From the sequence record MN709127.1: a DNA stretch of 64,000 nt; one strand, given 5' to 3'. The stretch comes from Escherichia phage Ec_Makalu_002. Shown one piece after another: positions 58,420 through 62,754 of the stretch. The notes under the pieces are model-generated. The model made no database searches and was not told where the DNA came from. It saw only the letters and a list, made by a program, of their open reading frames with translations. The position numbers and the translations under genes were made by a program. Within the stretch, counting starts at the first letter, position 1; every line of letters starts with the position of its first letter.

Positions 58420-58638
58420 TTATTTATATCGCTTTCTCTCGCGACGTTTTTGATCTTCTTCCTTGATAGAGTTAAATGCATCAAAAAGACACATGACACT
58501 AATAATAAACATAACCGTATTTTCTACGATATCCCACGGCTTCGCATCAGTACAGATCCCCCAAACGGTAAGAAATGCAAATAAGGCAGAAGAGATCACA
58601 AGCATGATACTTGCTAAGACATAAAAGGTCATCTTCAT
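58420..58638 (-). CDS. small membrane protein
   Basis: 72 aa; hydrophobic core, basic tail. Confidence 0.45.
   Translation of the reverse strand: MKMTFYVLASIMLVISSALFAFLTVWGICTDAKPWDIVENTVMFIISVMCLFDAFNSIKEEDQKRRERKRYK
58421..58428 (-). promoter_or_regulatory. T4-type late promoter core TATAAATA
   Basis: exact motif overlapping upstream stop, heading a 148-nt non-coding stretch. Confidence 0.4.
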
Positions 58639-58829
58639 GGTTTTACCTCAATTCTTCGATATTCATCACACATCCATGCAGTAAGCAAGAATCCCAACAC
58701 ATAAGCAACAAAATACGTTAATGCTTCTTCTGGTTCGGTGCTATGCGCCATCATCAGACCAGCGAGAAAGGTCTTAACAATTACATTTAAAATAATTAGC
58801 CACGCAAATAATTTCATCGTTTGCCCCAT
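58635..58829 (-). CDS. small membrane protein
   Basis: 64 aa hydrophobic. Confidence 0.45.
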   Translation of the reverse strand: MGQTMKLFAWLIILNVIVKTFLAGLMMAHSTEPEEALTYFVAYVLGFLLTAWMCDEYRRIEVKP

Positions 58830-59053
58830 TTCGGTCGAGTCTTCTCAAACTTATACATTCCGTGACAATCTCGAATCATCCACGTAACAAGAGCACCACT
58901 CAACACCGACAGCACACAGAAGAAGTAAAACGGTCCGGTTGCATTATCAACATGAGCAAGCCATGTAAAGAATACACATGCTAAGAATGTAAAGAACATC
59001 ATAAAACACAAGAAAGCAAAATATTTTATGCTACTCATATCGCCACCATACAA
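58814..59053 (-). CDS. small membrane protein
   Basis: 79 aa hydrophobic. Confidence 0.45.
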   Translation of the reverse strand: MYGGDMSSIKYFAFLCFMMFFTFLACVFFTWLAHVDNATGPFYFFCVLSVLSGALVTWMIRDCHGMYKFEKTRPKWGKR

Positions 59054-59141
59054 CAGATCATAAGAAACCCAAACGCAATAAGAATTGCATCAAATTTAGT
59101 GAACTCCGGTCCACCTATCAACATCATTCGTTCCTGTTCAG

Positions 59142-59339
59142 TCATAGATCACAGATCCATCTAAAAGCACCACATACAGCGATCAGGAGTGTAGGAACAC
59201 TTGAGAAGAAAACCAATGTACAAAAATCATCTAGTGTAATACCGGAATAACTACCGACTGCAATCACACCGATGATCAGACACAGAAAGAAAACAAATGC
59301 AATCAGAAACAAAGTATTGCTAAACAGTTTAGTGATCAT
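59142..59339 (-). CDS. small membrane protein
   Basis: 65 aa hydrophobic. Confidence 0.45.
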   Translation of the reverse strand: MITKLFSNTLFLIAFVFFLCLIIGVIAVGSYSGITLDDFCTLVFFSSVPTLLIAVCGAFRWICDL

Positions 59340-59533
59340 TAGACACCCCCACGACGGTCAATTTCAAAAACTTTCTTATCACAGACAAAGCAGGTCACTA
59401 CAGCCTCATTGACTTCCGCAAATTGTTGTGTTACCCACTTAAGGTCAGAGCGAAACAATGTTTTGTTAATAACAAATGTTTTACCTTTCTTATCCTTACC
59501 CATAAATTTTGCTTTAACCATATCCAATTCCAT
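59339..59533 (-). CDS. dmd: Dmd-like antitoxin (inhibitor of RnlA/LsoA-type toxins)
   Basis: ME...FMG..K...W.TQQFAEVNEAVV..F..DKKV.E.D.RG pattern matches T4 Dmd (60 aa) as recalled. Confidence 0.5.
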   Translation of the reverse strand: MELDMVKAKFMGKDKKGKTFVINKTLFRSDLKWVTQQFAEVNEAVVTCFVCDKKVFEIDRRGGV

Positions 59534-59542
59534 ATTATCACC

Positions 59543-59701
59543 TTATTTGCTAATCGCTAAACCTAATCCGAAGAGAGCACCAGACGCTACAGTATACCCG
59601 AAAGTTTCAAAGGCAGTCAAGATATCCAACCCACCAGCTAACAGAGTTGCAGTAAACAGAGTACCAGCTACGAACATAAAAGTTTTACCGATAAATTTCA
59701 T
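59543..59701 (-). CDS. small membrane protein (52 aa)
   Basis: MKFIGKTFMFVAGTLFTATLLAGG...; SD AAGGAGAA. Confidence 0.35.
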   Translation of the reverse strand: MKFIGKTFMFVAGTLFTATLLAGGLDILTAFETFGYTVASGALFGLGLAISK

Positions 59702-59733
59702 TTTGATTCTCCTTTCGTTTGTTTGTTGGGGGT

Positions 59734-59762
59734 ATCTTACTACCCCCGTTTCATGTTGTCAA
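59734..59762 (-). promoter_or_regulatory. sigma70-like promoter (TTGACA-N17-TAAGAT), hairpin GGGGGTA..TACCCCC
   Basis: minus-strand reading. Confidence 0.45.
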
Positions 59763-59768
59763 CTGTTT

Positions 59769-60146
59769 TTAAGAAAATTTTACTTCGTCTACAATGTCTT
59801 TCATGACATTGATTTCCATTCCGGTCAGAACACGTTGGAACATGTGCTGCACATACGCTTTCAGGTATTCATTTGATGGCTTGCTATCAAAAGTCTTTTT
59901 AGTGTAGTAGTCATCACCGAAAGCTACTGTAATTACATTTTCGTCGTCGTTCCAGGCAATATAAGCAAATTTGCCGTTATCCCAGAATCGAGCACTAATT
60001 GCTACTTTCGTTGAATCGAATCCTACTTCGCTGTGAGATTCAAGAACTACTTGCGTGCCAGTTTCTTTATGAATGTAGTAGCGGGATACTAAGTCAAAGT
60101 TACGGGTGTAGTGACATTCGAATTTATCTTTAAACATCATCATCAT
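59769..60146 (-). CDS. hypothetical protein
   Basis: 125-aa ORF. Confidence 0.5.
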   Translation of the reverse strand: MMMMFKDKFECHYTRNFDLVSRYYIHKETGTQVVLESHSEVGFDSTKVAISARFWDNGKFAYIAWNDDENVITVAFGDDYYTKKTFDSKPSNEYLKAYVQHMFQRVLTGMEINVMKDIVDEVKFS

Positions 60147-60185
60147 TTTTTGATTCTCCTAAGTGTGTTTCGTTTCGATGTGTGC

Positions 60186-60214
60186 ATTATGCTATAGTCG
60201 TTTATGGTTGTCAA
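60186..60214 (-). promoter_or_regulatory. sigma70-like promoter (TTGACA-N17-CATAAT)
   Basis: directly follows terminator; CATCGAAACGAAAC box. Confidence 0.55.
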
Positions 60215-60219
60215 CACAT

Positions 60220-60256
60220 AAAAACAAAAAAACCCCGAAAAAAAATTTCGGGGTAT
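60220..60256 (-). terminator. rho-independent terminator after Acb1-like gene
   Basis: minus strand ACCCCGAAATTTTTTTTCGGGGTTTTTTTGTTTTT. Confidence 0.65.
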
Positions 60257-60260
60257 AGAA

Positions 60261-60731
60261 TTACAGTTTGGTCGTCCACTCCAGATCTAGATCTTCGACA
60301 TATTCATGTGATCGGACAATCTCTAAATCGAACTCTAGGTCAGTGCCAAATTTACGCGCGCCAACATCATAAGAAAGCGTGATATGCGGTACATATTCAG
60401 GATAATCCCACGTCGCACCTAAAGCAGTTCCGATATCGTGTCTGAATTGCATGTAGTCGCTTTCAAATGCCAGCACAAGTGCATTAGTACCGGATTGAGT
60501 TTCAAACACTTTCAGATGGCACAGAGAGCCTAAGAACTTCTCCCCTTCTTCTGGGATAAACGGAACATAAACACGAGAATATAAGATCGTGCTATGAAGT
60601 TTATCACGAGGAACGGCATTAGGCAGATCGTAGAACTCCTGCAATTTTTCAATGCGGTCTAGTGTATCCTCAGTGAATTTAACCGCCGCATATGTACCTT
60701 TAACGGATTCTCGAAACGGGGTCATAATCAA
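60261..60731 (-). CDS. 2H phosphoesterase, Acb1-like anti-CBASS nuclease (T4 57B position)
   Basis: two H-x-T/S motifs (KLHSTILYS, VPHITLSY); directly upstream of 57A-1-3 as T4 57B. Confidence 0.6.
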   Translation of the reverse strand: MIMTPFRESVKGTYAAVKFTEDTLDRIEKLQEFYDLPNAVPRDKLHSTILYSRVYVPFIPEEGEKFLGSLCHLKVFETQSGTNALVLAFESDYMQFRHDIGTALGATWDYPEYVPHITLSYDVGARKFGTDLEFDLEIVRSHEYVEDLDLEWTTKL

Positions 60732-60994
60732 GCCTCCGTGATCAGTTCTACTTCCTCTTTATCGTCTTCCGCTGCCTCGTCTTTAGGGAGAAGTGCTTTT
60801 ACTTCTTCGACAATAGCATCAAGGGAAACAGTGCCGTTTTCGTCTGGCTGAATACCCAGAATGCGTACCAGTTCCATCAAGACACGCTCACGATCTTTCA
60901 GTTGGCCTTCTAAGAATGCGGCTTTTTCTTGAGTGTCAAACAGACGTACTTTCAGGACATTAATCATTTGTTCATGCTGATTGGACATATTCAC
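60728..60994 (-). CDS. 57A: tail fiber assembly chaperone gp57A
   Basis: 88-aa coiled-coil; FDTQEKAA and IVEEVKAL with acidic tail resemble T4 gp57A; ATGA overlap. Confidence 0.6.
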   Translation of the reverse strand: MNMSNQHEQMINVLKVRLFDTQEKAAFLEGQLKDRERVLMELVRILGIQPDENGTVSLDAIVEEVKALLPKDEAAEDDKEEVELITEA

Positions 60995-61020
60995 ATCTCC
61001 TACTTGTTGATAACTTTTTA

Positions 61021-61677
61021 TTAAAGGTTCGCGAGAATCGCGCTTTCAAATTCTTCTAATGTACCATTATTTATGATAATGGTTTCACCGTCAATAGGCA
61101 AAATTCCTTTTTCGGTGGAGTGAGTCGATACAATACCAGTATCACGCTGAATATGCAACACCTTAGCACCCATAGTACGCATGAGAGCAATTTCAATAGG
61201 CTGACGCACATCAACTACTACAAAATACCCTTCTTCATTTTTGCGCTTCATAAACTCATTCACGAAGAGATTACACCAATAAAGCGGATTAATCAAGTTA
61301 ACCATTATGTCAGTACCGAGAGTGGTTAACATGAGACGGATAGACCAGACGTTATTATGTTTTTCTCCGATCTCATTAACGACCTTGTAAATCTCAGCCA
61401 GACGGTCACATGTAAAGGAACTACCACCATACTTAGAATCTAGCATAAGCAGACACTGAATAAACCACTTATGCGCGGTGTAGGTATCAATACCTAGATC
61501 GGCTTCTCTGTCACGCCCTAACCCGTCAAAGTCAAGATAAGTCAGACCTAAGTCTGGTTGACATTCGCATAAGATTTCTTTGATCGGTGCTGCCAGCTGA
61601 TAACTGTGTCCATCAATGATTAACGCGGCAGTGTCTTTTCCTACGCGTTTTTTACCACAAAGTGCAATCAATTTCAT
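61021..61677 (-). CDS. 1: deoxynucleoside monophosphate kinase gp1
   Basis: MKLIALCGKKRVGKDT P-loop N-terminus as in T4 gp1. Confidence 0.8.
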   Translation of the reverse strand: MKLIALCGKKRVGKDTAALIIDGHSYQLAAPIKEILCECQPDLGLTYLDFDGLGRDREADLGIDTYTAHKWFIQCLLMLDSKYGGSSFTCDRLAEIYKVVNEIGEKHNNVWSIRLMLTTLGTDIMVNLINPLYWCNLFVNEFMKRKNEEGYFVVVDVRQPIEIALMRTMGAKVLHIQRDTGIVSTHSTEKGILPIDGETIIINNGTLEEFESAILANL

Positions 61678-61692
61678 AATATAAGCCTCTTG

Positions 61693-62283
61693 TTACTTTC
61701 TAAAAGCAGGGTGCATAGCTTTAATTCCTTCCACTCGCTGACGATCCGCCGCCTGAATTGCTGGGCGAGGAACGATCAGTTGACCATCACGTTCAATGCT
61801 CATTGTTTTAAATGGAAGAATTGCAGTACACACCAGAGATTCATGCATATCATCGGTGTATGTTAACTCAAGTTCCCCCAATTGTGAACACCAACAACCA
61901 TAAAAGTTAAAGGTGCATACAATGTTACGGCGTTCATTGTCCATCATGTGAACTTGAACGGCTTCCGGCATTGAATCCTTCCACGCGGTGGAGTTACCGT
62001 TATTGTAGTCTACTATAGAAAGCATCCATGTGTAAAGGTTTAGATAGCTTTCCAAATGCTCATCGACAATAAACCGGACTACCAGCGGGTCAAACTCTAC
62101 ATGACTGGAAGGATAATCAGCGACCGCCAAACCATATTGACCAGCAACTTGCTTAGTCGGTGGAATGGTTATAGCCGGAAGTGTAACACCTTGAGCATTT
62201 AAAGTAAAGCCTTTTGTTAGTTGACCATCTGGAATACTGATCTGCCAGTTACTAGGGTTAGCATAGTTAAAGAGATTAGACAT
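61693..62283 (-). CDS. 3: tail completion/sheath stabiliser protein gp3 (positional)
   Basis: 196-aa ORF after gene 1 as in T4 order 57A-1-3-2. Confidence 0.5.
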   Translation of the reverse strand: MSNLFNYANPSNWQISIPDGQLTKGFTLNAQGVTLPAITIPPTKQVAGQYGLAVADYPSSHVEFDPLVVRFIVDEHLESYLNLYTWMLSIVDYNNGNSTAWKDSMPEAVQVHMMDNERRNIVCTFNFYGCWCSQLGELELTYTDDMHESLVCTAILPFKTMSIERDGQLIVPRPAIQAADRQRVEGIKAMHPAFRK

Positions 62284-62472
62284 TACTGATTCCTCAAATG
62301 AAAATATTTATTAACAATTGTCGCTTTGCGACGTGCCGTAGGCACTGACTACTTTTTAACCGAAACAAATTTTTATTATTCTAAAGATCTTTCTTCGTTT
62401 TGGTTATGTTTTAACCAATAACTATATTTTTATACAGTAATAAATAAAACGGGTACTATACGAGGACTTCTT

Positions 62473-62727
62473 ATGACAGAAGACATTTTGTTAAAACTCT
62501 ATGATCGTTTGGATAACGAATTAGCAACATTGCGGGGTGAAGTTCTCTATTTGTCTAAATGTAATACAGATCTGCTTAAGCAGATTGCAGAAAGGGATGA
62601 CCAAATAAAATCCCTTTCAGGTGCATTACGTGACCGCGACAAGGCATTAGAGATTTTACAGCGTGTTACCAATAAGGAAGAATTAAAAGACTTCTTACAT
62701 GGTTATGCTCATGCTATCGATCTATAA
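62473..62727 (+). CDS. hypothetical coiled-coil protein (plus strand)
   Basis: 84-aa ORF; SD GAGGA; converges with gene 2 on a shared hairpin. Confidence 0.5.
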   Translation: MTEDILLKLYDRLDNELATLRGEVLYLSKCNTDLLKQIAERDDQIKSLSGALRDRDKALEILQRVTNKEELKDFLHGYAHAIDL

Positions 62728-62754
62728 TAAAAAAGCCCGTCATTGACGGGCTTA
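62726..62754. terminator. bidirectional hairpin terminator between convergent genes
   Basis: AAGCCCGTCATTGACGGGCTT; T-run on minus strand. Confidence 0.6.

Follow-up and report, generated by a model that had tools for sequence, protein, structure and literature searches.

We find that a small minus-strand gene of Escherichia phage Ec_Makalu_002 is, with very high probability, the Krischvirus orthologue of T4 gene 57B, that its Acb1 product would linearise CBASS signals, and that it would be the last cistron of a 3-1-57A-acb1 block. The gene lies in the 64,000-nucleotide stretch of sequence record MN709127.1 that was analysed here (the window), to which all positions refer. It is already known: the family is represented by a Pfam model and two crystal structures, its biochemistry has been published, UniRef names the exact 154-aa protein 'Anti-CBASS protein Acb1 n=16 Tax=Krischvirus' (Q7Y455_BPRB4), and the gene of phage RB49 is already called 57B, with the GenBank label 'RNA ligase' standing against the UniRef name Acb1. 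By tblastn, copies of acb1 were found in 1,475 of 50,697 phage records.

Sequence and predicted fold point to an Acb1 orthologue

A sequence-only reading of this DNA had proposed an Acb1-like 2H phosphoesterase at this locus, and the proposal is borne out by both profile and structure comparisons. The product matches the Pfam Acb1 model PF23474 over profile positions 1–143 of 144 (E = 1.5e-51; 174.4 bits against a cut-off of 27), a similarity that, as a profile score, is far beyond chance, and the same family is present in all 64 database homologues. When the PDB was searched by phmmer, the Acb1 of the Erwinia phage FBB1 (7T26/7T27) was the only significant match (E = 1.8e-43, residues 10–153); an NCBIfam scan of the product returned no matching model. 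Alignment gives 47–48% identity to T4 57B and 52–53% identity to FBB1 Acb1.

An AlphaFold2 model built from a 62-sequence alignment has a mean pLDDT of 91.6 and a pTM of 0.84, dropping below a pLDDT of 50 at the first five residues of the protein and at the final four of the lid. Its best Foldseek match is 7T26, the apo structure of FBB1 Acb1 (target-normalised TM 0.97, rmsd 0.9 Å over 138 columns), and the second is 7T27, the same enzyme with 3'3'-cGAMP (TM 0.93). Behind the Acb1 structures, Foldseek ranks the phosphodiesterase of a Burkholderia phage next (TM about 0.7, 16–18% identity). The check set in advance for the sequence-only reading looked for a missing Acb1/LigT fold or for misaligned histidines; when run, it returned the fold of 7T26 and an alignment in which both histidines fall into place. 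Judged by sequence and predicted structure, the gene is an Acb1 orthologue encoding a small 2H phosphoesterase.

More broadly, the predicted structure matches a set of 2H phosphoesterases that share the fold and the two HxT/S motifs but belong to other subfamilies with other substrates, at 10–18% identity and TM 0.36–0.72. This set includes the phosphodiesterase of Burkholderia phage BCSR5 (9Q2Y/9Q2G), E. coli LigT (5LDI), the penguinpox cGAMP PDE (9CIW) and the coronavirus ns2 and rotavirus 2'-5'-oligoadenylate phosphodiesterases (4Z5V, 4YE2). Several of these enzymes are used by viruses to destroy nucleotide signals of host immunity.

Gene model and genomic position

The protein had been described as 156 aa long. 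The minus-strand ORF 60261–60731 is real and does read 156 aa from TTG, but its likely coding part is shorter. The TTG (60731–60729) overlaps the TGA stop codon of 57A (60730–60728), a GGAGG sequence precedes the ATG at 60725, and relatives annotate that ATG, so the CDS is taken here as 60261–60725, with the ATG as the likely start of a 154-aa product (Table 1). The 154-aa form is used by the annotations of Ec_Makalu_001 and RB49 alike, and Ec_Makalu_001 also has a ribosome-binding site annotated at the position of the GGAGG.

Table 1 Features of the acb1 locus in the window (residues numbered from the ATG)
Feature	Position	Strand	Basis or remark
Early promoter TTGACA-17-CATAAT of the next gene (59769–60146)	60186..60214	-	Consensus scan, 11/12 matches
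Intrinsic terminator of the 57A-acb1 unit	60222..60254	-	ACCCCGAAA / TTTCGGGGT stem, then T-run
acb1 (57B orthologue) CDS	60261..60725	-	ATG to TAA, 154 aa; likely start
Second catalytic motif H114-I115-T116 (HITL)	60378..60386	-	Aligns with T4 H113/T115
First catalytic motif H44-S45-T46 (HSTI)	60588..60596	-	Aligns with T4 H44/T46
Gene 57A, tail-fibre chaperone, 86 aa	60728..60988	-	PHROG 1002, E = 2e-26; Pfam GP57, 27.3 bits
Shine-Dalgarno GGAGG for acb1	60733..60737	-	Inside the 57A end, 7 nt 5' of the ATG; from sequence
Candidate 57A-acb1 promoter TTGACG-17-AATAAT	61066..61094	-	Inside the 3' end of gene 1; scan, 10/12 matches

The segment 59700–62300 shows 99.3% identity to Ec_Makalu_001 and about 97% to RB49 and other Krischvirus phages (Straboviridae), and by these values the window is that of a Krischvirus, an RB49-like coliphage. 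Along the minus strand, genes for head completion (4), the DNA-end protector (2), tail completion (3) and the dNMP kinase (1; Pfam DNMK, E = 9e-68) are followed by 57A and acb1. The T4 order 4-2-3-1-57A-57B is thus matched by the window, by Ec_Makalu_001 and by the RB49 maps. The gene therefore occupies the T4 57B position, as the sequence-only reading had claimed, with acb1 directly after 57A on the same strand and the T4 gene order kept. The accompanying statement that it lies directly upstream of 57A-1-3 is true in plus-strand coordinates only. All genes of the block are on the minus strand, and acb1 is therefore the last of them, transcriptionally downstream of 57A.

Between genes 3 and 2, on the opposite strand, sits a coiled-coil-like ORF of 84 aa (62473–62727, plus strand). 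It has ATAAATA ahead of it (62440–62446) and an annotated bidirectional terminator hairpin after it (about 62726–62753), and a search of its product gave no significant Pfam match. RB49 shares this ORF (RB49p130); T4 is without an annotated gene there.

Probable co-transcription with 57A and candidate promoters

The gene had been credited with a terminator and a promoter of its own, and the two parts of this claim fared differently. The terminator is real. A hairpin at 60254..60232, directly 3' of the acb1 stop codon, was recovered by the consensus scan with a 9-bp stem that includes 5 G-C pairs, and its RNA fold of −14.2 kcal/mol corresponds to z = −3.9. It is conserved in RB49, where TransTerm predicted it as 'ORF125c<--57B' (Nolan et al. 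2006 supplement).

An own promoter, by contrast, is not supported. A consensus scan of the minus strand across 60726–60994 gave no sigma-70-like site, and neither of the late-promoter motifs TATAAATA and ATAAATA occurs in this 57A region. What the junction does contain is a gap of only 2 nt from the 57A stop to the acb1 ATG and a GGAGG inside 57A, from which acb1 is likely co-transcribed with 57A; T4 has a 4-nt overlap at its 57A/57B junction. It is the position of its stop codon, so close before the acb1 ATG, that makes 57A the likely partner. In this view, acb1 closes the minus-strand block 3-1-57A-acb1 and would probably be translated from the 57A mRNA, and the 57A-acb1 transcript would end at the hairpin 60254–60232.

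Two sites further upstream are weak candidates for the promoter that acb1 uses. The candidate at 61066–61094 overlaps the late-promoter-like CATAAATA (61068–61074), one of just eight ATAAATA sites in the window, and is conserved in RB49 and Makalu_001, yet lies within coding sequence; the second is AATAAATA at 62305–62312, ahead of gene 3. The published RB49 promoter predictions (Nolan 2006 supplements) list none for 57A or 57B and include neither site, and because of this absence we only tentatively infer that either one serves acb1. The first base of late promoters of the RB49 type can vary. Expression of T4 57B/acb1 falls mainly into the middle and late periods, which, by analogy, fits co-transcription within the block.

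The strong early promoter just beyond the terminator was considered as acb1's own and rejected, as it points at the next gene, 59769–60146, and so marks the locus boundary on the downstream side. Its equivalent in RB49 is Pe:60694, with a score of 31 (Nolan et al. 2006 Additional file 3). Over the window as a whole, ATAAATA is strongly depleted: the two strands together have 8 sites where 23.4 (sd 4.8) would be expected, each of 100 shuffles had at least 8, and most of the sites in the window lie just upstream of gene starts.

Functional residues and selection

In T4 Acb1, the catalytic tetrad is H44/T46/H113/T115, the bases are stacked by Y12, W74, F107 and W147, E141 touches adenine N6, and residues 145–152 form the C-terminal lid (Hobbs et al. 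2022, PMC9117128). By our own count, these residue numbers fit the T4 57B sequence. Alignment places the equivalents here at H44, T46, H114 and T116 for the tetrad, at Y12, F74, Y108 and W150 for the stackers and at E144 for the adenine contact; both of the H-x-T/S motifs named by the sequence-only reading, HSTI and HITL, were located (Table 1). The four tetrad residues are found in 62/62 homologues and Y12 in 61/62. Position 74 is F or W throughout (62/62) and F in 41/62, whereas E144 is kept in 56/62 and W150, which adjoins the low-confidence C-terminal tail of the AlphaFold2 model, in 47/62. Every described Acb1 functional residue is retained or family-typical, and nothing in the sequence suggests loss of function.

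Compared with T4 Acb1 (57B, NP_049750.1), the protein belongs to the same Pfam family and has the same HxT/HxT tetrad, adenine-reading Glu and lid Trp. The stacking positions are shared as well, but F74/Y108 stand here where T4 has W74/F107. Both genes occupy the slot directly after 57A with tight start/stop coupling. T4 Acb1 has 152 aa and the protein here 154 aa, with insertions of one residue near 80 and two residues around 129–133. FBB1 Acb1 has F and Y at positions 74 and 108, as here, and differs in the genus of its host and by a 2-residue insertion in the 128–133 region. The closest relative is RB49 57B (NP_891697.1 / Q7Y455_BPRB4), in which the protein is 100% identical and the flanking genes, the terminator and the downstream early promoter are the same.

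The gene is under purifying selection. It differs from its RB49 counterpart at 15 synonymous and 0 non-synonymous sites, and from that of Ec_Makalu_001 at 10 synonymous and 0 non-synonymous sites. Across the 2,601 nt of 59700–62300, the 99.3% identity to Ec_Makalu_001 corresponds to roughly 18 expected differences, 10 of which, all synonymous, fall inside the 465 nt of acb1; this clustering may mark a small recombination patch.

Proposed mechanism and implications

T4 57B was identified as a cGAMP-degrading activity that protects T4 from CBASS, and 10/10 recombinant Acb1 proteins (that of T4 and nine homologues) cleaved 3'3'-cGAMP and cAAA (Hobbs et al. 2022, PMC9117128). The lysate screen of the same study included the RB49-like phage vB_EcoM-G2494 (Hobbs et al. 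2022, PMC9117128), whose Acb1 differs from the acb1 product here by a single residue (D129N). Among the papers covered by a literature search, none named Acb1 together with RB49 or Krischvirus. [quoted passage not shown]

By homology to the Acb1 enzymes of T4 and FBB1, from which we infer both the substrate range and the anti-CBASS effect in vivo, we propose the following course of events. During infection, the metal-independent enzyme would bind those CBASS signals that are 3'-5'-linked cyclic di- or trinucleotides with one or more adenosines, with 3'3'-cGAMP, cUA, cAAA and cAAG as probable substrates. The signal would be held in a U-shaped pocket beneath the C-terminal lid, its bases stacked by the aromatic residues Y12, F74, Y108 and W150 and its adenine N6 read by E144, and the adenosine of the bound signal would be strained before cleavage. 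Next, H44-x-T46 and H114-x-T116 would cut 3' of adenosine by acid-base catalysis via a 2',3'-cyclic phosphate intermediate. Once linearised, the signal would be unable to activate CBASS effectors, and abortive infection would be avoided.

There are several practical implications. For RB49-like phages that are candidates for therapy, many GenBank records say 'hypothetical protein' or 'RNA ligase' where they should read anti-CBASS Acb1. RB49-like phages would likely resist CBASS systems whose signals are cyclic di- and trinucleotides with adenine, and defences that respond to the depletion of such signals may in turn be triggered by them.

Alternative readings

The label 'RNA ligase' corresponds to a different reading, in which the protein would be a generic LigT-type 2H enzyme, either a 2'-5' RNA ligase or a 2',3'-cyclic nucleotide phosphodiesterase acting in RNA repair or tRNA healing. 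PHROG 755 carries this label, which has been copied into many GenBank records, the Pfam models 2_5_RNA_ligase2 (PF13563; E = 0.0011) and LigT_PEase (PF02834; E = 0.057) match weakly, and LigT structures are among the Foldseek matches. However, both Pfam matches stay under their gathering cut-offs (19.4 against 27 bits and 14.1 against 23.3 bits) while Acb1 scores 174 bits, and E. coli LigT superposes on the predicted structure with a TM of about 0.5 and an rmsd of 6–7 Å, far from the agreement with FBB1 Acb1. Base-stacking residues and a lid tryptophan that are specific to Acb1 are also present. Because T4 57B, the founder of the family, is a proven cGAMP-degrading activity, the 'RNA ligase' label predates that work, and we regard a LigT-type function as very improbable.

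A departure within the Acb1 fold would be a shifted main target, such as the cA3 of non-CBASS systems, or a range narrower or broader than that of T4. The protein has diverged by about 50% from the tested enzymes, carries the small insertions near residues 80 and 129–133 and has F/Y at two stacking positions where T4 has W/F; some papers discuss an action of Acb1 on cyclic tri-adenylate beyond classical CBASS and its sensing by Panoptes-type systems. Against such a shift, F74 and Y108 are shared with FBB1 Acb1, a protein with a solved 3'3'-cGAMP structure, most family members have F at position 74, and each of the nine further homologues tested (9/9) cleaved both 3'3'-cGAMP and cAAA (Hobbs et al. 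2022, PMC9117128), so that this departure seems quite improbable. Finally, the dispensability of T4 57B/acb1 on E. coli K-12 and the annotation of acb1 as two fragments in Enterobacteria phage Cognac (QZI93712.1, 64 aa; QZI93711.1, 82 aa) could be taken to mean that the gene is a decaying, non-functional remnant kept by its position in the 57A transcription unit. The pattern of only synonymous differences from RB49 contradicts decay, the reading frame is intact with all catalytic residues present, at least 99% identical copies occur in 55 phage records, and 1,459 records have a copy that covers at least 80% of the query; a remnant is scarcely conceivable. The split annotation in Cognac suggests that this isolate has a frameshift or nonsense mutation, or that a sequencing error occurred. 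An intact Krischvirus Acb1 directed at CBASS signals is the reading we retain.

Downstream neighbourhood

Beyond the terminator, the minus strand carries a 125-aa orphan early gene, a 52-aa ORF, a Dmd homologue and five very small ORFs, whereas in T4 57B is followed by ipI and then a tRNA cluster. The 125-aa ORF (59769–60146) occupies the T4 ipI slot and has its own near-consensus early promoter (Table 1). It belongs to PHROG 15253, of unknown function, matches Pfam Gp30.7 weakly (E = 0.004), and in a search of 5.8 billion proteins returned three close Krischvirus-type clusters only, at 73–99% identity. The Dmd homologue (discriminator of mRNA degradation, an anti-toxin factor) lies at 59339–59533 (PF17587, E = 5.4e-14, 52.7 bits). 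This is about 730 nt downstream of acb1, and two counter-defence genes are therefore close together where T4 has ipI. The five tiny ORFs (58420–59339; 72, 64, about 74, 36 and 65 aa) have overlapping starts and stops and read as mostly hydrophobic and membrane-protein-like; searches of their products gave no significant Pfam family.

A tblastn search of the window and of RB49 58–164 kb detected no homologue of T4 Vs.4/Acb2, a cyclic-nucleotide sponge, or of IPI (best E at least 3), at a sequence level that a divergent analogue may escape. Because no Vs.4/Acb2 homologue is detectable, Acb1 may be the sole recognisable anti-CBASS gene of this phage type. The idea of an 'anti-defence island' has been raised for T4 (Hobbs et al. 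2022, PMC9117128), and the downstream gene content here fits it. A more far-reaching combination, in which acb1 would mark the edge of a Krischvirus-specific anti-defence island with undescribed counter-defence genes, would perhaps be the sole anti-CBASS factor and would perhaps have shifted substrates, we consider rather unlikely as a whole.

The T4 region differs in its RNA genes as well: an eight-tRNA cluster and the small RNAs C and D lie about 1.5 kb beyond 57B, whereas scans of the 64-kb window found no tRNA genes and no Rfam families. Elsewhere on the minus strand, a macro-domain protein (49749–50204; Pfam Macro, E = 7.6e-7) is 45% identical to T4 Tk.4 and is adjoined by two small zinc-binding-domain proteins (PF23895, PF23903). 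The macro-domain protein could be an enzyme acting on ADP-ribose.
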